Source: an uncultured delta proteobacterium
GTDB lineage: Bacteria; Desulfobacterota; RBG-13-43-22
Direction: 5' to 3'
Assembly (NCBI GenBank): GCA_963843145.1
Contig: CAWJJC010000010.1
Span: 128,001 to 192,000, forward strand
DNA: 64,000 nt
Shown here: positions 1-44,300 of the stretch, piece after piece
Layout: each line of letters opens with the position of its first letter
Numbering within the stretch: position 1 is the first letter of the stretch
Made by a program: the position numbers and the translations under genes
Notes under the pieces: generated by a model
Told to the model about the DNA's origin: nothing
Database searches by the model: none
Seen by the model: only the letters and a program-made list of their open reading frames with translations

Positions 1-626
1 GCTACGGGATGACGGAGACCACGGCGGTCAGCCACAGCACCCCCATCCACCGTCCGAAAAAGGGCTCCTTCGGGGTCCCGATACCAGGCGTCCAGGCCGC
101 CATCGTCGACCATGAAACCGCTGACTTCATGCCGGTCGGCGAAGTGGGCGAACTGATCCTCAAAGGCCCCAACATCATGCAAGGCTACTGGAAAAGGCCG
201 GAGAGCAACCAGGAGACCTTCCTGGAGATCGACGGACAGCGCTGGATGCGAACCGGCGATCTGGTCAGCATGGACGAGGAGGGTTACTTCCATTTCTTCG
301 ACCGCAAGCGAGACCTGATCAAGTACAAGGGTTACTCGGTCTTCGCCCGCCATGTGGAGGAGGTCTTGTACCAGCACCCCCAGATCAAGGCCGCCGGGGT
401 GGTCGGCGTTCCCGACCCCAAGGTGGGAAATCTGATCAAGGCCTACGTGGTCCTGGAAAGCGAGGCCCGGGGGAAAGTTTCGGAAGAGGAAATCATCGAA
501 TTCTGCAAAGAAAAGCTGGCCCACTACAAGGTGCCCAAAATCGTCGAATTCCGAGGGGAATTGCCTAAGACCGACGTGGGCAAAGTTTCCAGAAGAGAAT
601 TGCGGGAGGAGGCCGAGGAGGCCTGA
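1..626 (+). CDS. Long-chain acyl-CoA synthetase (AMP-binding), 3' part; runs in from the window edge
   Basis: YGMTE motif at window start, RTGD, DRKRDLIK and terminal LPKTDVGKV motifs of ANL adenylating enzymes. Confidence 0.92.
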   Translation, partial: YGMTETTAVSHSTPIHRPKKGSFGVPIPGVQAAIVDHETADFMPVGEVGELILKGPNIMQGYWKRPESNQETFLEIDGQRWMRTGDLVSMDEEGYFHFFDRKRDLIKYKGYSVFARHVEEVLYQHPQIKAAGVVGVPDPKVGNLIKAYVVLESEARGKVSEEEIIEFCKEKLAHYKVPKIVEFRGELPKTDVGKVSRRELREEAEEA

Positions 627-627
627 T

Positions 628-1395
628 ATGTCCGAACCGTATCTGGAAGTCGAATCCCTGACCAAGAGTTTCGGGGGCCTCCTGGCGATCAACGATGTCT
701 CCTTCCGCATGGAGCAGAAGGAAATCATCGGCCTCATCGGACCGAACGGGGCGGGCAAGACCACCCTGCTTCGGTTGATCAACGGCATCCTGAAACCGGA
801 TTCGGGAAAGGTTCATTTCAAAGGGAAATCCATCGTGGGCATGAAGACCTGGGACATCGTCAACCTGGGTATCGCCTGCACCTTTCAGAACATGCGGCCC
901 TTCCGAAGACTACCCATCATCGCCAATGTCATGGTTTCTTGCCTGTCTCCCCGGTCCATGAAACGGGGGGAGTGGGTCAAGAAGGTCGAAGCCAAGGCCA
1001 TGGATGCCCTGGAATTCGCTGGAATCTCCGACATGGCGCTGGAAAAGGCCTCCACCCTGTCCCAGGGAGATCTCAAGCGGCTGGAGGTGGCCCGGGCCAT
1101 CGCCACCGAACCTGAACTGCTGCTTTTAGATGAACCTTTCGGCGGTTTGAGCCCGGCCGAAACGGACCTGATGGCCAAGTCCATCCGAAGGCTTCACAAA
1201 GGGGGGCGCTTTGGCCGCCTGCACAGTGAAGGTCCGGCCATGATCATCGTGGAGCACAAATTACAACAGTTGATGAAGATTGTGGATCGGATTGTGGTCC
1301 TCAATTTCGGAACGCTCCTGGCGGAGGGTCCCCCGGAAGAAGTGGTAAACAATTCCCAGGTTATCGAAGCCTACTTGGGACAGGGAAACGTTTAG
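628..1395 (+). CDS. livG: Branched-chain amino acid-type ABC transporter ATPase (LivG-like)
   Basis: Walker A GPNGAGKT, LSQGD signature, LLLLDEP, VEH, C-terminal VIEAYLG. Confidence 0.88.
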   Translation: MSEPYLEVESLTKSFGGLLAINDVSFRMEQKEIIGLIGPNGAGKTTLLRLINGILKPDSGKVHFKGKSIVGMKTWDIVNLGIACTFQNMRPFRRLPIIANVMVSCLSPRSMKRGEWVKKVEAKAMDALEFAGISDMALEKASTLSQGDLKRLEVARAIATEPELLLLDEPFGGLSPAETDLMAKSIRRLHKGGRFGRLHSEGPAMIIVEHKLQQLMKIVDRIVVLNFGTLLAEGPPEEVVNNSQVIEAYLGQGNV

Positions 1396-12786: not shown

Positions 12787-15639
12787 TCAATCATACATCT
12801 CCTGCAGCAACTCCAGAATTTTCCGCCGGCTGGGGGTGGTGGGATCGGTGGCCATATTCACCGCGTCGCGCGAGGTGTAAAAGGCGATCTTCTCCAGGTC
12901 CCCTTGGGGAATTCCCTCGGCCTTCAGGCTGATGCGGATATCGAGCTTCTCGTAGAAGGCCAGCAGGCTTTCCAGGAGGTCGTTGGAGCGGTTCAACATC
13001 TGGGCCAGATCGGTAAAGGGGTCCTTACAGGTGTCCCGGTTGGCCCGGACAAAGCCGAGGAGGCCGTAGATGGCCGCCCGACCGTGGGGCAGATGGTAGT
13101 GGGCGCCCAGCACATGGGTAATGGCATGGCCGATCCCCAGGCCTTTCAGAAAGGCCAGGCCGCCGCAGAGGGCCGCCATGCACAGGTCGGTCCGGGCGGC
13201 GATATCCTCCCCGTCCCGATAGGCCCGGGGGAGGCTGCGCCCGATCAGTTTAACCCCGTAAACCGCCATGGACTCGAAGTAGGGGTGGTAGGGGGTGGCC
13301 AGGGAAACATAGCCCTCGACGCAGTGGGCCAGGGCGTCGATACCGGAGGCGATGGTCAGTCCGGGCGGCATAGTCCGGCAGAACAGGGGATCGATGACCG
13401 CCACCCGCGGGATCAGGTGATTGCTCATCAAAACCAGTTTCAGGTCCCGTTCCTTATCGGTAATCACCGCGCAGGGGTTGACCTCGCTTCCCGTCCCGGA
13501 AGTAGTCGGCAGGCAGAGGATCGGCGGTAGAATCGGCTTGATTTTGCCGCCTCCGCCCACAATCCCTTCAAATTCCCTCAGGTCCCCGGAGTGGGTGACC
13601 TGCAACCCGAGGGCCTTGGCCGTATCCATCGAACTGCCGCCGCCCAGGCCGAGAATGCCGTCACAGCCTGATTCGATATACAGCCGCCCGGCTCGTTCGA
13701 TGAGTTCGATGGGAGGATCGGGCTCCACCTCCGAAAAAACAACCGTTTCGATACCCCGAGGCTCAACGATCCGGCGGATCTCGTCCGCCCGCCCCAGGGA
13801 ATACATGACCGGATCGGTAACGATAAACAGTTTCCTGACCTGAAGACGCTTCAGGACTTCCCCCATTTTTCCCGCCACCCCGGCGCCGAACAGCGTTTCC
13901 GGCAGGGGCGGGATGCGGATTTCCCAGATCTTTTCTTTTTCCTGAAAGGAGTCCAGCCCGGCCCAGAAATGCGTGATCTCGGCCTCCTCCACATCGAAAA
14001 CCTGGTGGGTCGGGGCAACCGCCTCCTCGCGAATAAAGGCGGCCTCCCGGGTGTCCCCCCGGCTGAATTCGGCCTTTCCATTGAAAGCGAGCTGATCCCT
14101 AAGCGTCTGTTTGCCGATCTCCAGGACATCCGCGGGCGTCCACCGGCCCCCGTAGCGGGCGTTCAACAGATCGGCCAGGAAGGGATAGAGGGAAACCCGT
14201 CCGCCGGGAACGGCATTCAGGCAGTAGCCGAAAGCGTCACAGACGGCGGCCTGGACCTGGGCCTTGAGCGAATTCTCCGCTTGTTTCGTTCGGCTGAGGG
14301 GAATCCGGTAGGTCAGCCCGGCCGTGTGATCCGCGCCCATGGGGCTGGTGTAATAGGTGACCCCGGTTCCCTTGGTCGATCGGGGATCATGGCCGGGCAG
14401 GGCCTGCCCTTTATAGGCGGGCACCCGGCTGACGCCCAGGTATTGGGCGGTGGCCACCACCCCGTTTCCCAGGGCCCGGCCCAACGGCGTTTCCCGTTCC
14501 ATTTCTTCCAGCAGCCGCGCGGCCGAGGACCAATCGCCGAAGGTCATTTTCCCGGCCTCCGCCGCCAGGCCCAAAGCGCTGCCGGTTTCGATGGCATCGA
14601 CCCCCAGATCGTCGCAAAGGAATTTGAGCCGGGCAATGGCATCCGGATCGGTGATGCCCAGATTGCTTCCCAGCAGGGCGATAGTTTCATATTCATACGC
14701 CGAGCAGATCCGTTTCCCTTCCTGATCGGGATAGATGATGGAACAGCGGACCACGCAGCCGGGCATACAGCCGTGCATCCGGCCGCCCCGCTCAAAAAGG
14801 ATTTTCTGGATGCTGTTGCCGCTTACGGCGATAAAATCTTCGGGCCGGCCCGAACGGTAATTCAGGGTCGGCAAGGTCCCCTGGCTGGCGGAATTGGAAA
14901 CGGCGAAAGGCGTGCCGAAGCGGGAATAAAGGCTGCAACTCACATCGTGTTTGAGGGTGTTGACCCAGGATTTCACCCGCCGGCGAAAGGCCTCCGGATC
15001 GGCCGTCGCCACCGGACCGGTCTTTGCGGGATCGATGATAATGGCCTTGAGCCCCTTGGACCCCATCACGGCCCCGAGCCCTCCCCGGGCGGCATTCCGC
15101 GAGGGATCCCCGAACAGATCGGTCAAGGAGACCGAGGCCCCCCGGTATTTCCGCTCTCCCGCCGGGCCGGTAGAGATGATCGCCGTCTTTTCCCCGTGCT
15201 TTTCCCTCAGTCGCCCGGCCAGTTCGTAATTTTTAAGGCCCCGGTATTCCTCGGCCGGGATCAAGGCCGCCCGATCCCCGGAGATCGATAAGACGGTTAA
15301 GCGGCCATCCGGCGGAGCGCCGTGAACAACGATGGCGCGAATCCCCAGCCGGTCGAGGAATTGTCCGGCCGGGCCTCCGGCATTGGCCTCTTTGATCCCC
15401 AGCGTCAGGGGACTCTTGGCCCCGACGGAGATGCGCCCAAGCTGGGGCGCCCCGGTGCCGGCCAGGGGGCCGACGGCCACAATAAAGGCATTCTCGGGAC
15501 CCAGGGGATCCACCGCCGGCGGGACCTCCCGGTTCATGATCCGGGCCAACAATGCGCTGCCGCCGATGGGCAGCCAGTCCTCCCGGAGGCCCTCAAATTC
15601 AATCGTTCCCGTTTCCATGTTTAATCGCAGCAGCTTCAT
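12787..15639 (-). CDS. Fusion of aldehyde:ferredoxin oxidoreductase (AOR family, ~570 aa) and iron-containing alcohol dehydrogenase (~380 aa)
   Basis: AOR part: AKSPLT, GLGAVMGSKGLKAI, CMPGCVVRC, EYET, GADHT, DAFGYC. ADH part: GGGSSMD, PTTSGTGSE, DALAHCVE, GHAITH, PHG. Confidence 0.9.
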   Translation of the reverse strand: MKLLRLNMETGTIEFEGLREDWLPIGGSALLARIMNREVPPAVDPLGPENAFIVAVGPLAGTGAPQLGRISVGAKSPLTLGIKEANAGGPAGQFLDRLGIRAIVVHGAPPDGRLTVLSISGDRAALIPAEEYRGLKNYELAGRLREKHGEKTAIISTGPAGERKYRGASVSLTDLFGDPSRNAARGGLGAVMGSKGLKAIIIDPAKTGPVATADPEAFRRRVKSWVNTLKHDVSCSLYSRFGTPFAVSNSASQGTLPTLNYRSGRPEDFIAVSGNSIQKILFERGGRMHGCMPGCVVRCSIIYPDQEGKRICSAYEYETIALLGSNLGITDPDAIARLKFLCDDLGVDAIETGSALGLAAEAGKMTFGDWSSAARLLEEMERETPLGRALGNGVVATAQYLGVSRVPAYKGQALPGHDPRSTKGTGVTYYTSPMGADHTAGLTYRIPLSRTKQAENSLKAQVQAAVCDAFGYCLNAVPGGRVSLYPFLADLLNARYGGRWTPADVLEIGKQTLRDQLAFNGKAEFSRGDTREAAFIREEAVAPTHQVFDVEEAEITHFWAGLDSFQEKEKIWEIRIPPLPETLFGAGVAGKMGEVLKRLQVRKLFIVTDPVMYSLGRADEIRRIVEPRGIETVVFSEVEPDPPIELIERAGRLYIESGCDGILGLGGGSSMDTAKALGLQVTHSGDLREFEGIVGGGGKIKPILPPILCLPTTSGTGSEVNPCAVITDKERDLKLVLMSNHLIPRVAVIDPLFCRTMPPGLTIASGIDALAHCVEGYVSLATPYHPYFESMAVYGVKLIGRSLPRAYRDGEDIAARTDLCMAALCGGLAFLKGLGIGHAITHVLGAHYHLPHGRAAIYGLLGFVRANRDTCKDPFTDLAQMLNRSNDLLESLLAFYEKLDIRISLKAEGIPQGDLEKIAFYTSRDAVNMATDPTTPSRRKILELLQEMYD

Positions 15640-24452: not shown

Positions 24453-27400
24453 ATGAATGACCAAAGGGATCCCCTCTCCCCATTCCATCCCCTGATCCGC
24501 AAGTGGTTTACGGAAAGGCTGGGTGCGCCAACCAATATACAGTCACGTCGCCTGGCCGGAAATTGCCCTCGGAAGACACGTTCTGGTGACGGCGCCTACG
24601 GGCAGCGGCAAGACGCTGACGGCCTTCCTCTGGGCCATCAACCAACTGGTCACCGGCGCCTGGGTCACCGGCCGGACGCGCGTCCTCTATGTCTCGCCCT
24701 TAAAAGCGCTGAATAATGATATCCGGCGCAACCTGGCCAATCCCCTGGGGGAACTTCGCTCGTACTTCACGAAGGCCGGCGAGGAGTTTCCGCCTATCGG
24801 CCTGCTGACGCGCAGCGGCGATACGCCGGCGGAAGAACGGCGGCGGATGCGGCGCCGGCCGCCGGAAATCCTGATCACCACGCCGGAAAGCCTGAATCTC
24901 CTTTTGAGTTCCCGGAGCGGCCGGGAGATGCTGACCGGGATTGCCACGGTGATCCTGGATGAGATCCACGCCGTGATCGGCACCAAACGGGGGACCCATC
25001 TGATTACGGCCGTCGATCGCCTGGTCCGCCTTTCCGGCGAATTCCAGCGACTGGCCCTGTCGGCCACGGTGAAGCCCCTGGCCATCGTAGCCGAGTTTAT
25101 CGGCGGGTCCATGCTAAAGGGCGAAGGGCCCTCCGGGTATTATGAAAAACGGAACGTTTCGATTATTAAATCGAAGGACACCAAGCGCTATGGGATCGAG
25201 GTCCTTTTCCCTCCGGACGTCCGGGAACAGCCGGCCGACGCCTCCCGGTGGCCGGTCCTGGCTGCCGCCTTCCGGGAAGTCATTCGGGCCCACCGCTCCG
25301 TCCTGCTCTTTGCCAACAGCCGCCGCCTGGCGGAAAAGGTCACCCGCCTGATCAACGAAGGTCTAGCGGAAGAGCTGGCCTACTCCCACCACGGCTCCCT
25401 CTCCCGGGAGATCCGCCTGGCAGTGGAACAGCGTTTGAAAAATGGCGAACTGCGGGCCATCGTCGCCACCAGTTCCCTGGAGCTCGGCATCGATATCGGC
25501 GAACTGGATCTCGTCGTGCTTATCCAGACGCCGCCCTCCATATCCGCGGCCATCCAGCGGATCGGGCGTTCCGGCCACCGCGTCGGAGGGGTGAGCCGCG
25601 GCCTGCTCTATCCCACCCACGGGATTGATTTTCTGACCGCCGCCGTTATCGCCAAGAGCATCACGGATCAGGATATCGAAGCCGTCCGGCCCATCGAAGG
25701 TCCGCTGGACGTATTGGCCCAGGTGATCCTTTCCCTGACCGGTTTGGAACAATGGGATATGGATGAACTGTTCTCCTTCATAAAAACCAGCTACCCCTAC
25801 CGGCGCCTCCCCCGCCGGCAATTCGACCTGGTCCTGGAAATGCTGGCCGGGGGATACGCGGAAACGAGGCTCCGGGAACTTAAACCGCGCCTCTCCCTGG
25901 ATAAACTCGATAGCACCGTCCACGGCCGGGAGGGGGTGCTGCGTTTGCTCTATCTCTCGGGCGGAACCATCCCGGACCGCGGCTATTATGATTTGCGGCT
26001 GGCGGATTCCAAGGCCAAGATAGGCGAACTGGACGAAGAATTTGTCTGGGAACGGAGCCTCGGCGACACCTTCACCCTGGGCGCCCAGGTTTGGCGGATT
26101 CAGAAGGTGACCCACAACGAGGTAGAGGTGCTGCCGGCGGAGGTCAAACCTGGCATCTTCCCCTTCTGGAAGGCCGAGGACTTGAATCGGGATTTTCACT
26201 TTTCGGAAAAGATCCTGCTGTTCCTGGAACGATTCCAGACTCGGCCTGAAGTTTCCGTTTGGAAAGAGGAACTGCGGCGGGAATATTTCATGGAGAGAGG
26301 CGGCGGCGGACGAACTCCTCGGGTTTCTAAAAAGACAACAGGAAGCGACCCGGTCCGAGCTCCCTCACCGGCATCATCTGCTGATCGAGCACTTCCAGGA
26401 TCCCCTGAACCCCGCGGACGGCCGGCAAGTTATTCTACATACGCTCTGGGGCGGAAAAATCAACCGGCCTTTAAGCCTGGCCCTGCAGGCGGCTTGGGAA
26501 GAGAAGACTCGACACTCGTCTGGAAATCTTCCAGAATAACGACGGCCTCTTATTCCTGCTGCCGGACGACGTTTCCGCCGCGGAGGTCCTGACCCTGGTG
26601 ACGCCGGAAAACCTGGAACGGCTGCTCCGGCGGACGCTGGAGCAGAGCGGGTTTTTCGGGGCGAAATTCCGGGAAAACGCCGGCCGGGCACTGTTGCTCC
26701 CCCGCGGGGATTTTAAAAAACGCCTGCCCCTCTGGCTGAACCGGCTCCGGTCCAAGACGCTGTTGGAGGCCGTTCGGGTCTATCCGGATTTTCCCATTTT
26801 GCTGGAGACCTGGCGCACCTGCCTGCAGGATGAGTTCGACCTGGACCATCTAAAGCAACTGCTCGACGAAATCCGTGGCGGTCGGATAAAGATCACCGAG
26901 GCCGTCACTACCGCGGCCTCTCCCTTCGCCGACGGCCTGGTCTACCGGCAGACCAATGCCTATATGTATGCGGACGACACGCCCCGGTCGGAGAAAGCCT
27001 CTGCCTTGAGCCAGGAACTGCTGAAAGAAGTACTGTTTTCCCAGCGCCTCCGGCCGCGCCTTTCCCCGGACCTCAGCGCCGCGCTGGAGGAAAAGCTGAA
27101 GCGAACGACCCCGGGCTACGCCCCCCGATCGGCGGCCGACCTCCTGGACTGGGTCAAAGAGCGGCTCCTGATCCCGGCGCCGGAGTGGCAGGAGCTTAAA
27201 GAGGCCATGGGTCGTGATCGCGGGAGTTCGCCGGACGACCGAATCACAACCATCAGAGAAAAGATCGTCTCCCTGCGGCTGCCCGGGGCCTCGCTGGACC
27301 TGATTGGCGCCATAGAAAATCTGGGCCGGATCACCAAGGCCTTTCAAATCCAACCCGGGAAGTTGACGGTTCGGGATGTATTTTCCGGTGCCCCCTTGTC

Positions 27401-28961
27401 CGGCCGGGCCGCCTATTGGGTCGACACCGTATTAAAAAAATCCCCTTCAAAAAAAGCCGATCAGGAGGAGAACCCGCTGCCGGATCTCTTCCAGCAGTGG
27501 CTTTCCTTCTACGGACCGATCCGGAAATCCTCTCTGAAAGAGGTGCTGGGTCTCGAGGGTGTCCGACTGGATGACCTGTTGGCCGGCTTGGCGGAAGCCC
27601 AGGAGGTGGTGCTCGACCTGTTGACGGAACAGGCCGAAGAGCTGGAAATCTGTGACCGGGAAAACCTGGAGATCCTGCTCCGGATGGCCCGCAGGTCCCG
27701 GCAGCCTTCCTTCCAGGCCCTCGACTTGGACCGGCTGCCGCTGTTTCTGGCCGACTGGCAGGGCCTCACCCGGCCGGGCCACTCGCCCGATGACCTCCAG
27801 CGCATCCTGGATCAGCTCTTTGGATTCCCGGCCGCCGCCGACGCCTGGGAGAAACAGTTTCTGCCGGCCCGCTTATCGCCCTATTACGGTGCCTGGCTGG
27901 ACGGTCTGATCCACTCCGGTCCTCTTCTCTGGTTCGGCTGCGGCCTTCGTAAATTGAGCCTAGCCTTCTCCGACGACCTGGAACTCTTCCTCGATCCCGG
28001 CAGTGCCGGATCCGGATCGAAAACAGCGGAGACGAAGACCGGGGAGGAGGAACTGGTCCGTCTGCTGCCCCGGGAAATCGGACGTTACGGCCTGCTGGAT
28101 ATTATCCGCCATTCAAAAATGGACAGCCGGACCGTAACCGGAAAACTCTGGGACCTGGCCTGGCAGGGGCGGATCACCAATGACGCCTTCACCGCCCTGC
28201 GCCAGGGGATCGTGACGGATTTTGCTCCGTTTCCTTTAAATGAGGCCGGCCCCCGGCCTTCCCGATCGGCCTTTAACCGCTGGGCCGCTACACGCCCGCT
28301 GTCCGGAAACTGGTACGCTATCGACCGCGATAAGATGGATAAAGATCCCATCGCGGAAGCGGAATTGGTCAAGGACCGGGTCCGTCAGCTCCTCCGGCGC
28401 TATGGTCTACTCTTCCGGGAACTGGTAGCGGGCGAGCTGCCGCTGCTTCGCTGGTCCAGGGTATTCAAGGCCCTACGGCTCATGGAGCTTTCCGGCGAGA
28501 TCCTCTCCGGGCATTTTTTTCAAGGTATCCCCGGCCTGCAATTCATCTCCCCCGAGGCCTTCCGCTTCTTAAACGAACCCCAGACGGAGGACCCCGTTTA
28601 CTGGCTGAATGCCGCCGACCCGGCCTCGCTTTGCGGGATTAAACTGGAGGCCTGGAAGGGCCTCCTCCCCAGCCGCCGACCTTCGACGCATCTGGTCTAC
28701 CGCGGATCTCGATTGGTCATCATTTCCCGCCGGAACGGCGGGTCCCTGGAAATGCGGATCCCTCCCGAAGACCCGCGTCTCCCCGACTACCTGGCCTTTT
28801 TTAAGGTGCTGTTAACTCGCGAATTCAGTCCCGAAAAAATCATACTGGTGGAAACGATCAACGGGAAGCCTGCCCTGGAAAGCGAATACGCCGGTCCTTT
28901 GAAGGCCTTCGGTTTTTACAGAGGCTATAAAGGATTAGAGTTGGTGAAGAAATATGATTGA
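24453..28961 (+). CDS. lhr: Large Lhr ATP-dependent helicase (~1500 aa) with C-terminal extension; three +1 frameshifts (~24545, ~26296, ~26515)
   Basis: APTGSGKT, SPLKAL, TTPES, DEIH, SAT, HHGSL, LELGID, QRIGRSGH; C-terminal LLRRYG and NAADPASL. Confidence 0.88.
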
Positions 28962-31317: not shown

Positions 31318-31346
31318 TTGACATCCCGGCGGTGTTTTGGTAATTG
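31318..31346 (+). promoter_or_regulatory. Sigma70-type promoter for the riboswitch operon
   Basis: TTGACA, 17-nt spacer, TG-N-TAATTG, immediately before the riboswitch P1 stem. Confidence 0.55.
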
Positions 31347-31350
31347 AGAT

Positions 31351-31511
31351 CTTTCGGTTCGAGGGTTAACGGAACACGGTGCGACTCCGTGGCGGACCCG
31401 CCGCTGTAACCGGTGACAAAACCCGAATGACCACTGCCCGTTCCAAGACGGGTGGGAAGGTCGGGTGGCGGAAGATCCGGGAAGCCAGAAGACGAACGCT
31501 CGAACCGGGGG
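31351..31511 (+). ncRNA. Cobalamin (B12) riboswitch
   Basis: GGAAcacGGTGcgAcTCCgtg, CCCGCCGCTGTAA, CCACTG...GGGAAGG and B12-box AAGCCAGAAGAC in the expected order; closing stem CTTTCGGTTCGAG/CTCGAACCGGGGG. Confidence 0.92.
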
Positions 31512-31530
31512 CACGCGGATGGTAAACGGT

Positions 31531-31570
31531 ACCCCTGATCCCTTATTTTTAGGGATCAGGGGTTTTTTTT
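31531..31570 (+). terminator. Intrinsic terminator (riboswitch expression platform)
   Basis: Perfect 13-bp stem ACCCCTGATCCCT/AGGGATCAGGGGT followed by a T-run. Confidence 0.88.
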
Positions 31571-31643
31571 CGCCGCTCGCCCCGGAAAGCGGCGGGCAAC
31601 GGCCCCGGGCCGTCTATTTCATTCGACAAGGAGAATCGAGGGT

Positions 31644-32207
31644 ATGTCAAAAAGCGTTTTGGAAGCAGGGGTAATGAATCGGAGCCTATTTTTCATGAAT
31701 ACCAAATCGCTGGTGGGGGCGGTGCTGCTGGGATTGGTTTTCGTACTGGTGCAACAAATCGCCCACCGAATCGATGCCTTGATTAATCCGGCCTGCGTCA
31801 TCATCGGCGGGGTGACCTGGGCCACCTTCACCGGACTGGTGGTGCTCCTGTACCGCCAACCGGCCGGAATCATCACCGCTGAAGTGGCCGCCTTCACCGG
31901 ACTGGCAACCGGCCTTTCGGTCCTGGCGCCTTTCTTTATTCTGGCCAATGGAGCCGGATCCATCGTCTATTCGCTGGTGTCCTGGAAATTGCCCATGAGG
32001 ACCTGGCTGCACCACTTCCTGGCCCAACTGGCCACCAACCTGGTCGGCAACTTGCTGGTCGCCATCGGCCTGCGGGTCCTGCTGCACCTGCCCTTCGGAG
32101 TCATCCTGGTGGCGGCCGGGATCACCACCTTGGCCGGGGTAGTCGGCGGAACGATCCTGACCAAAAAGATTTATGAGAACATCCATCACGCCGGGCTGGC
32201 CGATTAA
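31644..32207 (+). CDS. ECF transporter substrate-specific (S) component, specificity unknown; start may be 31695
   Basis: ~170-190 aa, about 6 hydrophobic helices, first gene of an operon with ECF A and T genes. Confidence 0.72.
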   Translation: MSKSVLEAGVMNRSLFFMNTKSLVGAVLLGLVFVLVQQIAHRIDALINPACVIIGGVTWATFTGLVVLLYRQPAGIITAEVAAFTGLATGLSVLAPFFILANGAGSIVYSLVSWKLPMRTWLHHFLAQLATNLVGNLLVAIGLRVLLHLPFGVILVAAGITTLAGVVGGTILTKKIYENIHHAGLAD

Positions 32208-32221
32208 AGGACATTGACGCT

Positions 32222-33595
32222 ATGTCGCAGGATCTCAGGGTCTTTTTGAAAGATTTCGAACGGCTTTTCCCCCAGCAGGTGGTACGGATCAACCGGGAAT
32301 TGAGCCCGGTGTTTGAGCCCACTGCCGTTATTATGGAACTGGAGCGATCCCGACGATACCCGCTGGTCTACTTTGAAAATATCCGGGGTTCGGCCTTTCC
32401 GGTGGTGGCCAATGTCCTGGCTACCCGGCAGCGCCTGGCCCTGGCCCTGGACGTCCGGCCGGAAATCGCGGCGGAGGTGTTTGCGCGACGGATCAAGTCC
32501 GCCATCCCCCCCTTGCGGGCCCCCGAAGCCCCCTTTCAAAAAAATCGCCAGAACGGCGAAGCGGTCAACCTGACCGGCTTCCCGATCCTGACCCATTTCC
32601 CGGTTGACGCCGGTCCGTACGTGACCGCCGGCCTGGTCCTGGCCAGGGACCCCGAGTCCGGCTCCGATACCTGCGGCTACCACCGGATGCAGCTCAAAGG
32701 CCCGAACAAACTCGGCGTGAGTCTCCACTCCCGGCAGCGGCTGTGGGAATATCTGCGTCGGGCGGAACAGGCCGGCCGCAACCTGGAGGCTGCGGTGGTC
32801 ATCGGCGTGCATCCGGCCGTATCCCTGGGGTCCATGGCCTTGGTACCCTATGACCAGGGTAAATTCGCCCGCATCGGCAGTTTGTTGAAAGCCCCCCTTC
32901 AGGTTACCCCCTGTCAAGACATCGACCTGGATGTCCCAACCTTCGCCGAAGTGGTGATCGAAGGTGAAATCCTGGCCGGCTGTCACGAACCCGAAGGACC
33001 TTTTGCCGAGTTTACCAACTACGCTTCTTCTCGCAGCACGGAAAATGTATTCAGGGTAAAATCCATTCACTATCGGGACCAGGCCCTTTACCAGAGTATC
33101 ACCCCGGCCCGGTCCGCCGACCATGTGACCATCGTCGCGCTCCATCGGGAGGGGGAGTTATGGCGCGCCTTGCACCAGGCCCTGCCCAATGTCCGGCAGA
33201 TCCACGTACCCCTTTCGGCCTGCGGCTTGTTCCACTGTTACCTGGCCTTGGAAAAAACCGCCGAAGGCCAGCCCATGCAGGCTATTCTGGCCTCCCTGGC
33301 CGTGGATCACAACATCAAGCTGGTCATCGTGGTGGATGCCGATATCGATGTCTTCGACGAAGCCCAGGTTTTATGGGCCGTGGCTACCCGGGTTCAAGCG
33401 GACCGGGACGTGATGATCATCCCCCAGCATCAGGGCATGGGCTGCACCCTGGATCCCTCCAGCGATGAACTGAGCCGCAGCGCCAAAATGGGCATCGACG
33501 CCACCAAGCCCCTTTCAGGATTTGCCCGAAGGATCGATCCGGACCCGGCCGCCCAGGACAAGGCCCGCCGGATTCTCCGGGAATTGCGGATCTGA
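32222..33595 (+). CDS. UbiD-family (prenylated-FMN) decarboxylase
   Basis: DAGPYVTAG, GYHRMQ, EVVIEG, EGPFAEF, VVDADIDVFD, WAVATRVQ, LDPS, KMGIDAT. Confidence 0.92.
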   Translation: MSQDLRVFLKDFERLFPQQVVRINRELSPVFEPTAVIMELERSRRYPLVYFENIRGSAFPVVANVLATRQRLALALDVRPEIAAEVFARRIKSAIPPLRAPEAPFQKNRQNGEAVNLTGFPILTHFPVDAGPYVTAGLVLARDPESGSDTCGYHRMQLKGPNKLGVSLHSRQRLWEYLRRAEQAGRNLEAAVVIGVHPAVSLGSMALVPYDQGKFARIGSLLKAPLQVTPCQDIDLDVPTFAEVVIEGEILAGCHEPEGPFAEFTNYASSRSTENVFRVKSIHYRDQALYQSITPARSADHVTIVALHREGELWRALHQALPNVRQIHVPLSACGLFHCYLALEKTAEGQPMQAILASLAVDHNIKLVIVVDADIDVFDEAQVLWAVATRVQADRDVMIIPQHQGMGCTLDPSSDELSRSAKMGIDATKPLSGFARRIDPDPAAQDKARRILRELRI

Positions 33596-33609
33596 CCCTG
33601 TCCCAGACC

Positions 33610-35112
33610 ATGACTGCCACGGAACCGGCCCTGTTGCGGGCCCATATCCGGACTTTGAGTTTCGAGCCGAATTCCTCGCCTGTCTTACGGGACATCCTGT
33701 TGAAAATCGCTCCGGGAGAATTCATCCTGCTCCTGGGCCGAACCGGCGCCGGGAAATCGGTCCTGACCCGGTGCCTTTCAGGAGTAATACCCCGCTTCCA
33801 GAAAGGCTATCTGGACGGGGCCGTTTACTTGGCAGGACAGGAGACTATCTCGAAGCGGCTGCCGGAATTATCCGCCCTGGTCAGCCTGATCACGGACGAT
33901 CCTCAAAATCAACTCTTCTGCCCGACGCTGGCGGATGATCTGGCCTTCGGACCGTGCAACCTCGGGCTGTCGGCTGACAACGTCCGGCACCGGATGGCCC
34001 GGGCGCTGAAGGAGGTGGGGCTGGAAGGCTTTGGACAGCGTCGGCCCGAAACCCTTTCCGGGGGTGAGGCCCAAAAAGCCACGCTGGCCTCCTTCCTGAC
34101 GCTAGGTGCTCCGCTCCTGATTCTCGACCGAGCCGCCGGGCAGATGGACGCCGAAAGCCGAAAAACCGTTTATGAACACCTGGCCGAGTGCTGCCGTAAC
34201 CGGAGCCAAAGCATTCTGGTTATCGATGAGCAGTTCCAGCCCCTGCTTCCCCTCGCCAGCCGCCTGATCTTCCTGGAAAACGGATCGGTGGGCTACGACG
34301 GCCCCCCAGGCCGGGCGCCTGCCGGGCTCCTGGAAAGCCTGCAGTCGCCAGCCTTCGAACCGCGACTGCCCAATCCGGTCACTCTACCCGCCGCCGAGGC
34401 CCCCCCCCTTCTCGAGGTAAAAGACCTTTCCTCCGCCTATCCCCACGGAACATTCGCCCTGCGTCAAATCTCCCTGGCCGTTCATCGAGGGGAATTCGTG
34501 GCTATCCTGGGCCGCAACGGGGCCGGGAAGACCTCTTTGATCCGGCATTTCAACGGGCTGTCGGTCCCGGATCGGGGAGAAGTCCGGGTCGAGGGGTTGA
34601 ATACTCGGGACCATTCCCCAACGGTTTTCGCCGATCGGATCGGGTTCCTTTTTCAAAACCCCGATTCCCAGCTTTTTGCCAGAACGGTCCGCGAAGAGGT
34701 GGGGTTCGCCCTGCGAGTTAGGGGAGTAAGCCGAAAGAAAATCGAGGCCCGGGTGAAGGCGGTTTTGGCTGAACTGGGCCTTTTGCCAGTGGCCGGGACC
34801 CATCCTTACCGGCTCAACCGCGGCACCCGACAGATCGTGGCCTTGGCCGCCTGCCTGGTCAATCGCCCCCCGTTATTGGTGCTGGATGAGCCCGTCTCCC
34901 ACCTGAGTTTCCCCCGCAATTGGGAAATCCTGGAACTTATCGGCCGTTTGAACCGGCAGGGCCTGACCGTTATCCTGGTCACCCATGATTTCCAGGCCGT
35001 CCGGCATTTCAGTACCCGGAACATTTTTCTGGAAAATGGGCGTGTGGTCAAAGACCTTAATTGCCCCGGCGTCTTCGAAACGCGTCCTGCTGCAACCCAC
35101 AGGCCCGTGTGA
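33610..35112 (+). CDS. ECF transporter ATPase with two fused ABC domains
   Basis: GRTGAGKS and GRNGAGKT Walker A motifs, DPQNQLF/NPDSQLF Q-helix, AFGPCNLG. Confidence 0.88.
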   Translation: MTATEPALLRAHIRTLSFEPNSSPVLRDILLKIAPGEFILLLGRTGAGKSVLTRCLSGVIPRFQKGYLDGAVYLAGQETISKRLPELSALVSLITDDPQNQLFCPTLADDLAFGPCNLGLSADNVRHRMARALKEVGLEGFGQRRPETLSGGEAQKATLASFLTLGAPLLILDRAAGQMDAESRKTVYEHLAECCRNRSQSILVIDEQFQPLLPLASRLIFLENGSVGYDGPPGRAPAGLLESLQSPAFEPRLPNPVTLPAAEAPPLLEVKDLSSAYPHGTFALRQISLAVHRGEFVAILGRNGAGKTSLIRHFNGLSVPDRGEVRVEGLNTRDHSPTVFADRIGFLFQNPDSQLFARTVREEVGFALRVRGVSRKKIEARVKAVLAELGLLPVAGTHPYRLNRGTRQIVALAACLVNRPPLLVLDEPVSHLSFPRNWEILELIGRLNRQGLTVILVTHDFQAVRHFSTRNIFLENGRVVKDLNCPGVFETRPAATHRPV

Positions 35113-35120
35113 CCGGCGGC

Positions 35121-35873
35121 ATGAACCCGATCCCCGGAGAAGACGATTCCAGGTCCGGTCCGGTATTCGACCCTCGGGTGAAAATTGCCTGGCTGGGGGC
35201 CGGCGTCACGCTGGCGGTCTGGCACCAGCAAATCGGGCTCCTCGGCCTGCAGTTGATCCTGACCCTGGGGTTAAATCGCTGGATCGGTCTGCCTTCAAGC
35301 AAATTGGGGCCCCTGTTTAAAGTGACGGGGGCCATGGGACTGCAGTTGATTCTCCTCCAGGGATTTTTGCAGCCGGAGGGGTCAAAGCTATTCACGCTGG
35401 CCGGATATAGCTTTTATACGGGAGGCGCGCTGCTGGGCCTTAGAGGGATACTGGTGGTCTCCAGCCTGGCCCTCCTTTTTTTCCAATTCCTTTTCTGGAC
35501 CTCGCCCCGGGAAATCACCCTGTTGTTGATCAAGCTACGAATCCCCTATCGATATGCCTTCGCGGCCGGAATGGCGGTCCGCTTTTTACCCCTGCTACAG
35601 CAGGACCTGCAATCGATTGTCCAGAGTCAAATGTCCCGGGGCCTGCCGCTGGATGGTTTCTTCAAGAGAATAAAAGGTCTGCCTCCTATTATGCTGCCGT
35701 TGATCCTGAAGACCTTGCGACGGGCCGAAACCATTGCCCGTTCGATGGAACTCAAGGGATTCGGCCTTCAGCCCAGGGTCACCCGACTGGAGAATTTAGA
35801 AATGGGCTGGAAGGACCTGGGGGCGCTCGCGGCCATCGCCTTCTACGGCGCCCTGCTGGCCTGGGGTTTCTGA
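35121..35873 (+). CDS. ECF transporter transmembrane T component (CbiQ/EcfT family)
   Basis: DPRVKI, RFLPLL, QMSRG and MELKGF coupling-helix motifs. Confidence 0.88.
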   Translation: MNPIPGEDDSRSGPVFDPRVKIAWLGAGVTLAVWHQQIGLLGLQLILTLGLNRWIGLPSSKLGPLFKVTGAMGLQLILLQGFLQPEGSKLFTLAGYSFYTGGALLGLRGILVVSSLALLFFQFLFWTSPREITLLLIKLRIPYRYAFAAGMAVRFLPLLQQDLQSIVQSQMSRGLPLDGFFKRIKGLPPIMLPLILKTLRRAETIARSMELKGFGLQPRVTRLENLEMGWKDLGALAAIAFYGALLAWGF

Positions 35874-41127: not shown

Positions 41128-41317
41128 CCGGCGATCCCTCCCGATTTTTGCATCCAGGCCCAGGCCCCAATGATCGGGCGAACCTCTCTATTTTGGGGTC
41201 TTGACAGACAATCCGAAAGGGGTATGATGATCTTTAAAAGGCAGCAAGTCTTCCCGACCGGTTGATCTGCTGCTGATAAACCGGGAATAAAACGTGTCGC
41301 TTCTCTGGAGACCAGGA

Positions 41318-44300
41318 ATGGCCCCTTTCGGTCAGGTGCTCGGTATAGACATCGGTTCCGTTTCCCTGGCCATCGCCTGCCTGGCTCCCGACACCACCAT
41401 CCTGGAAACCTTCTACGCCTTCCATCAGGGGAAGATAGCGGAAACCCTGAATTCCCTGCTCTCCGGGTATCCGCTCGAACCCGTCGGCCATCTGGCCTGC
41501 ACCTCCTCCACCCCCGAAACTATCGGCCCCGCGGTCCGCTACGATACCCAGTTGGCGGTCATCAGCGGCGCCTCCCTGGTCCGGGAAAAAATCGGAAGCA
41601 TCCTCCTGGTGGGGGGCGAAAAATTCAGCCTGCTGCAGTTCGACCCCCAGGGCCGGTACCGGCGGTCCAAAACCAACACCTCCTGCGCCGCGGGAACCGG
41701 CAGTTTTCTTGACCAACAGGCCTTTCGTTTGAACCTGCAGGGGGTCGAGGCGCTGGCCGAATTGGCCGATTCCAATCAAGGGGAAATCCCCAAGATCGCC
41801 TCGCGTTGCGCGGTATTCGCCAAAACCGACCTGAGCCATGCCCAACAGGAGGGGTATTCCCTGGCCGAGATCTGCGACGGCCTCTGCTTCGGGCTGGCCC
41901 GCAATATCGTGGATACCCTCTTTACCGGCGACGGCGTGACGGCGCCGGTGATTATGAGCGGGGGGGTGTCATTGAACCGGGCCGTGGTCCGGCATCTTTC
42001 CAGGCTGATCGGAATGCCGATCGAGGCGGACGCCTATTCCCCGCTCCACGGGGCCATCGGCGCCGCCGCCTGCCTGCTCCGGGAAAACAATTTTGAAAAC
42101 CCGCTGTCGATTCGCCGGCCGGCCGAGCTGTTCCGGCCCTCGGCGGAAAAACGGACCTATTTCTATCCGCCGCTTTTGACGACCTCTTCCGAGGTCCCCG
42201 ATTTTCACCCCCCGGAGAGTTACCTTTACCGCTCCGCCCGTTCCGATTTCCAGCCCGGGGTGGAGGTGGAACGGTTCGAACCCCTTTCAGCGGGGGAAAA
42301 CAACACGGTATTTCTCGGCCTGGATATTGGCTCCACCAGCACCAAAGCCGTTCTGACCGGCCCGGGCCGGAAGGTGGTCGCCGGATTTTACACCCGCACG
42401 GCCGGACGGCCCTTGCAGGCCGTCCAGGTCCTTCTGGAGGCCATGGATGACCTGGCCCGGAAGCAGGGGACGACCTTCCAGGTCCTGGGAGCCGGAACGA
42501 CCGGATCGGGACGGACCTTCATCGGCCGGATTATCGGGGCCGACCTGATCATCGACGAAATCACGGCCCATGCCCGAGCCGCGGTGGAGTTAAACCCGGC
42601 CGTCGACACGATCATCGAGATCGGCGGACAGGACTCGAAGTTCACTACCCTGAACCAGGGGTTGGTCACTTTCTCGACGATGAATGCCGTCTGTGCCGCC
42701 GGGACGGGCAGCTTTATCGAGGAGCAGGCCTCCCGGCTCGGCTGTCCGCTGACCGAATACTCCCGGCGGGCCGAGGGGATTCGGGCCCCGCTGGCCAGCG
42801 ACCGCTGCACCGTGTTCATGGAACGGGACCTGAATCATTATCTCAGCAAAGGCTATGGGGTCGACGAGATCCTGGCCGCGGTGCTCCACGCCGTGCGGGA
42901 CAACTACCTGTCCAAGGTGGCCGTGGGCTCCCGCATCGGAACCTGCCTTACTTTCCAGGGGGCGACCGGACGGAACCGGGCCCTGGTGGCGGCCTTTGAG
43001 CAGAAGCTGGGCCAACCGATCTTCGTCTCCCCTTACTGCCACCTGACCGGGGCCCTGGGGACGGCCTATATCCTGGAGGAGGGCGGCCTGAATCGCTCGG
43101 CCTTCCGGGGGATCGAACTCTATAAACAATCGGTCCCGATCGAGACCGAAGTCTGCGAATACTGCACCAACCACTGCAAGATCAAACTCGCCCGCCTGGA
43201 CGGCGAAACGGTGGCCTACGGTTTTCTCTGCGGCCGGGATTATGATACCCGGGAATTCGTCAATAAGAACCGCTCCGGCTTCGATCTCCTCCAGGAACGG
43301 GCCCGGGCCTTCCGGTTTAAACCGGGAACCCACGATACCGGGCCGACCATCGGGCTTCCGGCGGCCCTGCATCTCTTCGAAGACCTGCCTTTCTGGAAAA
43401 AGTTCTTCGACCTGCTGGAGCTGAAGACCCGGTCGAGCGAGGACTGCCGGGATGCCGTCGCCAGGGGAAAGTCTCTGGCCGGCGCCGAATTTTGCGCGCC
43501 CATCGCCGCCCTTCATGGCCATGTTTCCTATCTGGCCCAGCGCTGCGATTCTATTTTTTTGCCGATTTACCTGGAAGCCCGGGACAAGCCGCCGGGACGG
43601 ATACGAAAATACTGCTATTACACCCAGTACGCGCCGGCCCTTGTCTCTCGGATGGAAGAGACCGTTCGCCGGAAGTGCCTGGTACCGCTTCTGGACACCA
43701 ACGCCGGGATTAGTACCGGACTCCGGCGGCTGCACCAGGTCTTGAAACAGGTCAAACCGGGGCTCTCCTTCCTCAAAGTCCACTCGGCCTTTCAACAGGC
43801 CCGGGCCTTTCAGGCGCCGGTCGGAAGCGGCTGATCGAGCTTTTCGAACGCCGCGTCTCTGAGAGCGGCGAAATCAAAGTCGTCTTATTGGGCCGCCCCT
43901 ATACCCTCTTCTCCCGGGTCATGAACAAGGGGATCCCCGATATCTTCGGGTCCCTGGGAATCCAGACCTTCTCCCAGGATATGCTGGCCGGGACCGCGGA
44001 TAGGGCTCAGGAGATCGGCGGGCTGCTGCGGGCCTTTCACTGGAATTACGCGGCCGCCATCCTGGAGGCCGCCGAAGCAGTCGCTTCCCGGGAAGGGATC
44101 TACCCCGTGCTGGTCACTTCCTTTAAATGCTCTCCGGATTCCTTCGTGACCGACTACTTCAAGCAGATCCTGGAAGGGGCCGGGAAACCCTACCTGATCC
44201 TGCAACTGGACGAGCACGATTCCAGCGTGGGTTACGAAACCCGGATCGAAGCGGCCGTACGAGCCTTCGGCAACCACTTCCGGAGGAAAGCCCGGATCGT

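Follow-up and report, generated by a model that had tools for sequence, protein, structure and literature searches.

A 64,000-nucleotide (64-kb) stretch of contig CAWJJC010000010.1 from an uncultured delta proteobacterium (GenBank assembly GCA_963843145.1), referred to below as the window, contains four co-oriented genes that follow a cobalamin (B12) riboswitch. They encode a small orphan membrane protein (hereinafter S), a UbiD-family decarboxylase dependent on prenylated flavin mononucleotide (prFMN), a fused ATPase (A-A') of an energy-coupling factor (ECF) transporter, and an ECF T component. The linkage of S, UbiD, and the ECF genes and their control by the riboswitch are conserved across phyla and are not due to chance, and, on the evidence at hand, the module is an undescribed member of the B12 regulon.

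The S gene (positions 31644 to 32207; all four genes are on the forward strand) encodes 187 amino acids (aa) with about six hydrophobic segments and without a Pfam or NCBIfam family, a putative ECF S (substrate-binding) component. Next come the 457-aa prFMN-dependent decarboxylase (32222 to 33595), which has the UbiD_N, UbiD, and UbiD_C domains, matches TIGR00148, and belongs to an HmfF-like clade; the 500-aa A-A' protein (33610 to 35112), in which PF00005 is found in two stretches that correspond to two ATP-binding cassette (ABC) domains; and the T component of the CbiQ family (35109 to 35873; PF02361, 80.7 bits against a cutoff of 25). The A-A' protein scores above the cutoff for cbiO (TIGR01166, 243.2 versus 211.8) and just under the one for TIGR04520 (ECF_ATPase_1, 311.4 versus 315). 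The longest open reading frame (ORF) of T begins at TTG 35061, but its translation probably starts at GTG 35109, in a GTGA overlap with the A-A' stop codon, or at ATG 35121; tblastn matches to relatives start at query residues 7 to 37. Because ECF ATPase and T component are encoded together with the S gene, the array has the composition of a dedicated (group I) ECF module, S itself being putative. The first-pass annotation of this DNA had described a tightly packed order of S, UbiD, fused A-A', and T, and the four co-oriented ORFs, the 14-nucleotide (nt) gaps that separate S from UbiD and UbiD from A-A', and the domain matches for UbiD, A-A', and T agree with it, as does its remark that ubiX and cobalt or corrin genes are missing: there is none in the operon or among the 10 flanking ORFs scanned.

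The leader elements were likewise part of the first-pass annotation, and two of the three are now on firmer ground. The aptamer (31346 to 31515, forward strand) was recovered by the Rfam covariance-model check that had been named in advance, with RF00174 scoring 85.4 bits against a gathering score of 31.5 (E value of 1.2e-19) over the full model (positions 1 to 189 of 189), and an Rfam scan of the whole window revealed no second family. An intrinsic terminator, the presumed expression platform of the riboswitch (31531 to 31571, forward strand), is placed 16 nt past the aptamer and 73 nt ahead of the S start codon. It consists of a perfect 13-bp stem with 8 G-C pairs (31531 to 31563), a 7-nt loop, and a T8 tract, and its hairpin dominates the predicted fold of positions 31480 to 31580 (-40.7 kcal/mol; z score of -3.16). 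A terminator in the leader implies an OFF-type switch, so that the leader is predicted to be a transcription-terminating (OFF) cobalamin riboswitch. The third element, a possible promoter read from the sequence (31318 to 31346, forward strand), is plausible in view of its perfect -35 hexamer (TTGACA, 31318 to 31323) and 17-nt spacer but remains unconfirmed, as its -10 hexamer (TAATTG) is poor and the site is absent from the list produced by a consensus scan.

Conservation of the module in related loci

We collected 86 related loci (numbered with the prefix L, and their genomes with the prefix G) from Desulfomonilaceae-like, Bacillota, and Actinomycetota genomes and from metagenomes: 21 from a scan with S, 14 from a search with UbiD, and 51 from a metagenome scan. 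For the first set, an S alignment was compared with one genome per species, and 85 pattern matches resulted in 21 confirmed loci. A UbiD ortholog (58 to 87% identity) adjoins S in 20 of them; in the exception, L023 from a metagenome-assembled genome labeled Thermincola ferriacetica, the riboswitch is followed by S, a ferredoxin, and an aldehyde:ferredoxin oxidoreductase (AOR), and A, T, and UbiD are encoded with HyuA and HyuB on another contig of the same genome (L059). A cobalamin riboswitch detected with Rfam heads the gene array in 19 of the 21 loci, and the other two, L013 and L016, are truncated by contig ends that lie 178 and 20 nt ahead of S, respectively. The reciprocal UbiD search covered a sample of 401 genomes from the phylum to which the Formimonas genome belongs, 16 of which matched at an E value of 1e-120 or below with 57 to 67% identity. 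All 14 loci newly fetched from it (including L060, which is the same record as L024) encode A-A' and T, with an S homolog in 13 (39 to 67% identity), HyuA/HyuB in 12, and UbiX in 8; a riboswitch is present in 13, and L059 ends at a contig edge. In the metagenome scan, which used a UbiD alignment, a riboswitch was detected in 27 of the 51 loci with an nhmmer profile instead of Rfam. This profile was built from 33 Rfam-confirmed aptamers and recovered all 4 held-out Rfam matches, and Rfam found no cobalamin riboswitch in any of ten nhmmer-negative loci submitted to it.

Counted by transcription unit, 66 units contain an ECF gene, 55 of which have at least 400 nt of upstream sequence, and our script flagged a riboswitch in 51 of these 55. 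Three of the four misses are artifacts (an unrelated upstream ABC gene merged into the unit in L006 and L023, and an A-A' match filtered out in L108), with the riboswitch directly before the first module gene in all three; L076 is not evaluable, because the locus begins inside HyuB. Thus, a cobalamin riboswitch heads 54 of 54 evaluable ECF-containing units. Of the 61 loci with both S and UbiD, 57 have S directly ahead of UbiD, while A-A'/T and HyuAB shift position; the order differs in L025 (S-AOR-UbiD) and L066 (S-A-T-UbiD), and L057/L084 is a split pair. Among the loci counted, L018, L078, and L080 are duplicates, as are L014 and L081, L054 and L075, L057 and L084, L055 and L085, L024 and L060, and L101 and L102. 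Conserved synteny and riboswitch co-occurrence, proposed as a check in the first-pass annotation, are therefore both seen in these loci, and its principal claim, that of an import-and-decarboxylate module in the B12 regulon, is well supported; the module is also larger than described there, since relatives add HyuAB, UbiX, an LpdD-like protein, and AOR.

The genes are arranged as S-UbiD-A-T, HyuAB-S-UbiD-A-T, S-UbiD-HyuAB-A-T, or A-T-S-UbiD-HyuAB-UbiX, and the riboswitch heads the array in each. The minimal form without HyuAB is found in the window, in L006 to L008, and in Desulfomonilaceae and metagenome relatives. In other loci, the module is split. Thus, L057/L084 has two divergent riboswitches, one before UbiD-HyuAB and the other before A-T-S; in L082, L086, L098, and L100, the riboswitch directly precedes UbiD-HyuAB, and the surrounding 10 kb are free of ECF genes; in L066, UbiX and S-A-T-UbiD are each preceded by a riboswitch of their own; and L055 (with its metagenome twin L085) has the order riboswitch-cobT-riboswitch-A-T-S-UbiD-HyuAB. 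Each split unit has its own riboswitch, and the enzymes are members of the B12 regulon in their own right.

Of the partner proteins, HyuA and HyuB fall in the hydantoinase/oxoprolinase families and are nearest to the caprolactamase subunits CapA and CapB (NF050156 and NF050157, 603 and 377 bits against cutoffs of 1000), and the PDB chain 6yra_B is matched with 297.7 bits; the pair resembles caprolactamase more than acetophenone or acetone carboxylases. These family matches point to an ATP-dependent hydrolase of cyclic amides, either lactams or hydantoins. UbiX, as encoded in L012, is a canonical flavin prenyltransferase (TIGR00421, 270 bits). A 112- to 129-aa PF21758 protein (“bacterial proteasome assembling chaperone-like”) follows UbiX or HyuB in many loci; we read it as LpdD-like because LpdD, described in PMC10865409 as a prFMNH2-binding chaperone that activates UbiD enzymes, has a fold of that type. 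An AOR is inserted beside S in the Thermincola-type loci L023, L025, and L090. Finally, a DUF2284 “predicted metal-binding” protein recurs in L064 (2842 to 4137), L065, L067, L094, L095 (3727 to 4323), and L105, at the end of the UbiD-HyuAB-UbiX array or divergent from it, in two forms, one of 431 aa whose N-terminal half is unassigned and one of 198 aa. No PDB relative of this protein was found; it could be a prFMN maturation factor for anaerobes.

Several of the loci have features of separate interest. In Anaerosolibacter carboniphilus (L011), an azaaromatic (yjdF) riboswitch (13068 to 13169, forward strand; 85.3 bits) heads a 137-aa ORF about 0.9 kb downstream of the T gene, which may be a coincidence or a clue to the ligand class. 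In L023 (1102 to 7626, forward strand), a second cobalamin riboswitch, 6.5 kb upstream of the S-AOR unit, heads a separate operon whose last genes encode a BPD_transp_1 permease with two domains and an ABC ATPase, an importer of the ABC type regulated by B12. In the 2.9-Mb genome G341, the gene of an IS200-like transposase (PF01797; L065, 13405 to 13899, reverse strand) separates the riboswitch (14062 to 14241) from A-A' and may disconnect the operon from its leader. The UbiD and A-A' genes of L017 and the A-A' gene of L008 match in several shifted pieces, and the S gene of a genome from the same genus as the window (G004, contig C42, 26000 to 26539) has in-frame TGA stops; these could be decaying copies or long-read assembly errors. 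A CRISPR array of about 45 CRISPR-DR2 repeats is found 2.5 kb upstream of the module riboswitch of genome G130 (L058, 34 to 3029, reverse strand).

The 10 flanking ORFs scanned in the window include a split Lhr-type helicase, EcsC, a small methyltransferase, a MarR-like helix-turn-helix protein, DinB, a B3/4-domain protein, a solute-binding protein, and a BadF/BcrA-type activase. As these are unrelated to the module, the four genes form a self-contained unit. The helicase is encoded by two adjacent forward-strand ORFs, one with DEAD, Helicase_C, and WH_Lhr domains (24523 to 26592) and one with DEAD_assoc, WH3, and WH4 domains (26598 to 28961), which may reflect a natural split, a frameshift, or an assembly error. 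The activase (41294 to 43834, forward strand) is an 846-aa protein with two BadF/BadG/BcrA/BcrD ATPase stretches and DUF2229 and resembles the activases of 2-hydroxyacyl-CoA dehydratase or benzoyl-CoA reductase. Five soil-metagenome DNA data sets matched small shares of the window, with no RNA data set among them.

The decarboxylase and the S protein

The window UbiD scores above the cutoffs for the three domains of its family (PF20695, 60.1 bits; PF01977, 192.1 bits; PF20696, 110.2 bits) and for TIGR00148 (321.8 versus 244.85). Its EGPFxE motif, called intact in the first-pass annotation, is EGPFAE and is invariant in 18 UbiD orthologs, as are R171, R173, E258, and E263. From the motif spacing, we take R171/R173 and E258-GPFA-E263 to be the E(D)-R-E network of these enzymes. 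In PMC8988006, a conserved E(D)-R-E ionic network beside prFMN is described for the UbiD family. The nearest PDB chain is HmfF (6h6v, 284.9 bits over residues 18 to 435), whose EGPFGE is aligned with EGPFAE and whose substrate, which has a five-membered ring, is given in PMC8988006 as a 2,5-dicarboxylated heteroaromatic compound; some sources automatically name the UbiD orthologs “2,5-furandicarboxylate decarboxylase 1.” However, HmfF lies outside the tight clade of the window UbiD, which is at least 51% identical within itself, and there are no hmf pathway genes in the neighborhood, so that orthology with HmfF was rejected. The window UbiD was also rejected as VdcC (hydroxyarylic acid decarboxylase subunit C), with 267.3 bits for NF041204 against a cutoff of 650. 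By sequence, it falls in an uncharacterized clade nearest HmfF, and the phylogenetic check named in the first-pass annotation thus did not place it in a characterized clade unrelated to cobamides. In L096, which has no cobalamin riboswitch, an FMN riboswitch (561 to 684, forward strand; 114.7 bits) lies 9.3 kb upstream of UbiD and is probably unrelated to it because of that distance.

The S family is small, with 68 clusters at 90% identity and 45 representatives at E values of 1e-3 or below among 1.84 billion, and keeps invariant His-His, Asp, Glu, and Gln positions. A search of 401 Actinomycetota genomes for distant relatives returned 2 genomes, both already known. The six or so hydrophobic stretches were delineated with a crude window method, not a topology predictor. 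No significant Pfam match was obtained for 19 members of the family, and PF12822 was matched by 1 of 16 distant relatives (at 1.3e-4). When the 19-sequence profile was compared with RibU-type proteins, the hhalign probability was 0.2, and membership in the RibU family was rejected at that level. With a profile widened to distant relatives, hhalign gave 36% for PF12822-type proteins (E value of 3.8e-4) and 24% for RibU-type proteins (E value of 8.2e-4, 151 aligned columns), versus 0.3% for a T-component control. When a 40-sequence profile was compared with 177,635 PDB sequences, there were just three matches at E values of up to 10, all of them weak (2.8 to 6), all of them ECF S components (FolT, 9kym_D and 4huq_S; RibU, 3p5n), and all aligned in register; CbrT and BtuM were not among the matches at this threshold. 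The Atlas cluster nearest to the S homolog P0028 is named “ECF transporter S component” (score of 0.91), which we treat as a lead only. As to context, ECF A/T genes share the locus with S wherever the flank suffices, except in L023, where the sole nearby ATPase is an unrelated ABC gene and A/T are found at L059 of the same genome. Given this A/T context, its size, the hydrophobic segments, and the weak remote signals, S is probably the S component of a new, undescribed ECF family. The assignment made in the first-pass annotation thus holds as regards size, hydrophobicity, and context; a family match is lacking, and the signals of remote homology are weak.

Candidate functions of the module

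ECF importers serve micronutrients and vitamins, UbiD enzymes use prFMN to decarboxylate acrylic, aromatic, and heteroaromatic acids, and B12 riboswitches of the OFF type govern either the supply of cobamides or substitutes that work without B12. The reading that we favor, with confidence somewhat short of even, is that of a B12-repressed module for uptake and decarboxylation of an N-heteroaromatic carboxylate, which would yield a cobamide building block, most likely the base of the lower ligand. When cobamide is scarce, the leader would be read through, and the ECF complex would import a scarce, polar (hetero)aromatic carboxylic acid, from which UbiD, with prFMN made by a UbiX encoded elsewhere in the genome, would remove the carboxyl group in the cytoplasm. 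The product would feed cobamide supply, most probably as a benzimidazole- or purine-type base for the CobT that the same genome encodes under a riboswitch. In the Bacillota and Actinomycetota relatives, the co-operonic HyuA/HyuB and, sometimes, AOR may convert lactam or aldehyde precursors into the UbiD substrate.

A more specific version of this scheme, built by analogy and in our judgment unlikely as it stands, is an oxygen-independent salvage route in which S would import an N-heterocycle derived from a flavin or a pterin and HyuAB and UbiD would turn it into a benzimidazole or purine base for CobT. Candidate imports are a quinoxaline or pteridine dione, its aldehyde, or a ring-contracted carboxylate, at vitamin-level concentrations. 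HyuAB would use ATP to open the lactam ring or to contract it, AOR would oxidize the aldehyde forms, and the prFMN decarboxylase would strip a (benz)imidazole-2-carboxylate to the free base, ready for activation by CobT.

The host genome contains five cobalamin riboswitches, including the one in the window. The other four precede cobD/Q-cobA-cobB-cbiC-cbiMNQO, cobU, btuB-btuFCD, and a lone cobT, so that the rest of the regulon is devoted to cobamide supply. To judge from its genes, the host already makes corrin and imports cobalt and cobamides and, by the known markers, is without a lower-ligand pathway. Its genome has no BzaAB/F, as the single ThiC-like gene, located beside thiD, passes the ThiC cutoffs, scores under the BzaB cutoff, and is ThiC, and it has no BluB above the cutoff (best score, 105 bits versus 150). 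The first-pass annotation had suggested looking elsewhere in the genome for ubiX, cobT, and bza; the first two were found, cobT being the lone riboswitch-controlled gene just mentioned, and bza is absent from the host. The host UbiX is a 216-aa PF02441 protein (G000, contig C20, 464151 to 464657) that shares 52% identity with the UbiX encoded in the operon of L012, and there is no cobalamin riboswitch in its vicinity. This only UbiX of the host lies 5 kb from a second UbiD paralog that is 29% identical to the window UbiD (region 464151 to 471443 of the same contig); this UbiX probably belongs to a quinone pathway or another one that shares its prFMN. The only HyuAB of the host is not an ortholog of the module HyuAB, since the two are 32 to 34% identical. 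A phenolic lower ligand (ArsAB) was considered and is unlikely, with no tandem cobT pair in 5 carriers and the VdcC model far under its cutoff.

Several observations weigh against the lower-base proposal. A BzaA-BzaB pair is encoded in 7 of 26 carrier genomes (G024, G076, G245, G274, G301, G315, and G403), so that the module would be at most an addition to de novo benzimidazole synthesis and not a replacement for it, and one of these genomes, G315, is the very one in which cobT adjoins the module. In the order of the host, S is found in 5 of 21 genomes (one copy with in-frame stops) and bza in 0 of 21, which is to say that there is no complementary pattern of module and bza. The adjacent cobT is confined to one genome (L055, with its twin L085), and ten host cob and btu protein queries found no other cob/btu gene in the fetched flanks, the sole exception being a CobQ-like gene 8 kb from the riboswitch-less locus L101. 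The same enzymes can also work outside B12 control, as indicated by the riboswitch-less lineage described below. Many of the loci are near-duplicates or close relatives, and the counts given above show consistency and overstate independence. The S-component fold is only putative for S, with no match in Pfam and remote signals that are individually nonsignificant. Taken together, the adjacent cobT in one genome, the absence of bza and bluB from the host, and the bzaAB in 7 of 26 carriers make the evidence for a lower base suggestive but mixed.

The coexistence of the module with bzaAB in those 7 carriers, and the fact that it is never embedded in cob clusters, would suit a B12-sparing bypass, in which the product replaces or relieves the output of a cobamide-dependent enzyme, for example by salvage of a folate-, pterin-, or queuosine-related heterocycle. 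OFF-type riboswitch control is a hallmark of B12-independent isozymes as well (compare metE and nrd), and the weak PDB neighbors of S are folate and riboflavin S components. Still, we could name no cobamide-dependent reaction whose product would be supplied by a decarboxylase and a lactamase, the four other riboswitch units of the host all belong to cobamide supply, and cobT adjoins the module in L055; on balance, such a bypass seems improbable.

The invariant His-His, Asp, Glu, and Gln of S, together with the common role of B12 riboswitches in cobalt uptake, raise the question of another cobamide input, such as a tetrapyrrole- or pyrrole-type precursor or cobalt bound to a heteroaromatic dicarboxylate chelator that UbiD would destroy, thereby freeing the metal. 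A substrate of this kind would be in keeping with that of HmfF, the nearest solved relative, which acts on a 2,5-dicarboxylated heteroaromatic compound according to PMC8988006. Against it, the host already has a riboswitch-controlled cbiMNQO, the HyuAB and AOR partners indicate processing of an organic substrate, and no metallochaperone or chelatase is found in any locus examined, which makes this input quite improbable.

The bearing of ordinary catabolism or detoxification can be judged from a FastTree phylogeny of 79 UbiD rows, a quick and unrooted tree in which L111 and L112 were not evaluated for a riboswitch. All 54 riboswitch-associated rows fall within one 72-row clade (local support of 91). 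Nested in it is a 7-row lineage of UbiD-HyuAB with an LpdD-like gene, whose loci have neither a riboswitch nor an ECF gene and, in L101 and L103, have a divergent major facilitator superfamily (MFS) gene upstream. The branches just outside the clade (L087/L099 and L109) also lack the riboswitch, L087 and L099 being linked to MFS genes. This distribution fits B12 control as ancestral to the 72-row clade, with one loss. The nested lineage and the MFS-linked outgroups look catabolic, AOR is a catabolic type of enzyme, and the relatives of HyuAB include caprolactamase and acetophenone carboxylase, all of which would accord with breakdown or detoxification of an N-heterocycle or aromatic acid, with B12 control secondary (for example, to change over to another substrate once energy metabolism that depends on corrinoids stalls), or with UbiD acting as a carboxylase. 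ECF importers, however, are of high affinity and low capacity, riboswitch control is present on every split unit besides fitting an ancestral state, and no downstream catabolic genes are conserved across the loci, so that we give this explanation little credence, the least of those considered.

B12 regulons have been mined for twenty years, and, to our knowledge, nearly all of their members serve cobamide synthesis, uptake, or remodeling or are B12-independent isozymes. Here, a complete prFMN system (UbiD, UbiX, and the LpdD-like protein), HyuAB, and an unclassified, putative ECF substrate-binding family are found under B12 riboswitches. A full-text search of the literature library consulted revealed no paper that joins UbiD with a cobalamin riboswitch or cobamide, and a search for hydantoinase with a B12 riboswitch or ECF revealed no such module in titles or the opening parts of abstracts. 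A study of corrinoid starvation in Dehalobacter restrictus (PMC4285132) describes five riboswitch operons; UbiD, decarboxylase, and hydantoin do not appear in its main text, although its supplements may list the genes, and a protein that its source names as being from D. restrictus is among the UbiD orthologs (57% identity). The carriers are anaerobes with a high demand for corrinoids; among their source names are Desulfomonile, Dehalobacter, Desulfitobacterium, Desulfosporosinus, Formimonas, Thermincola, and Alkalibaculum. Should the module yield a building block of cobamides, it would represent new enzymology for cobamide salvage and a new exchangeable metabolite in the microbial B12 economy, with a bearing on bioremediation consortia; oxygen-independent salvage could explain the unusual lower ligands of organohalide respirers and acetogens that lack BluB and Bza. 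A bypass would reveal an unknown cobamide-dependent process. Several carriers are in culture, among them, by record name, Geosporobacter ferrireducens IRF9, Anaerosolibacter carboniphilus DSM 103526, Candidatus Formimonas warabiya DCMF, Desulfosporosinus orientis DSM 765, and Dehalobacter restrictus, and the enzyme family is easily assayed, which makes the question directly testable.

Comparison with known systems

The closest parallel in logic is the CblT-CblS salvage of alpha-ribazole, along with other units for precursor uptake under B12 riboswitches; it reportedly pairs an ECF-type S component under B12 control with a single cytoplasmic enzyme acting on the cobamide precursor that is taken up. 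The window module would share this pairing of a B12-regulated S component with a precursor-processing enzyme, but its S is unrelated in sequence, its own A-A' and T are encoded with it, and its enzyme is a prFMN decarboxylase (joined by an ATP-dependent lactamase in the relatives), whereas the CblS-type enzyme is said to be a kinase. ECF-CbrT and BtuM are cobamide importers with solved structures; they would resemble the module in having a small ECF-type membrane substrate-binding component under B12 control, and neither of them is known to have an embedded enzyme, as the window module does.

HmfF (6h6v/6h6x), the closest solved relative of UbiD, shares the aligned EGPF(G/A)E motif, but the neighbors of the window UbiD are ECF genes and, in the relatives, HyuAB and UbiX instead of hmf genes, and HmfF is not known to be regulated by B12 or linked to an ECF importer. 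The best chemical precedent, by analogy, for HyuAB and UbiD making a base akin to a lower ligand comes from Cupriavidus sp. LA-1, in which, as outlined in PMC12391406, a pteridine dione undergoes ring contraction and a prFMN-dependent UbiD, which works with UbiX and a dihydroxylumazine isomerase, then decarboxylates xanthine-8-carboxylate; amide-bond chemistry on an N-heterocyclic dione is thus followed by prFMN decarboxylation of an acid of the imidazole-2-carboxylate type to a purine base. As far as that description goes, the system differs in serving aerobic breakdown, in relying on a molybdenum dehydrogenase and an isomerase of the amidase-signature type, and in having neither B12 control nor ECF genes. 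The VdcBCD/LpdBCD systems, as presented in PMC10865409, are paralleled in many relatives by the set of UbiD, UbiX, and an LpdD-like protein (PF21758), while neither a B nor a D subunit is encoded in the window operon. The HyuAB of the relatives matches the caprolactamase/hydantoinase type (6yra) best, far under the equivalog cutoffs, and the pair is absent from the window operon. In sum, a known logic, that of a riboswitch, a precursor importer, and a processing enzyme, appears to be realized here with new parts: the S family, the prFMN decarboxylase system, and the ATP-dependent lactamase.

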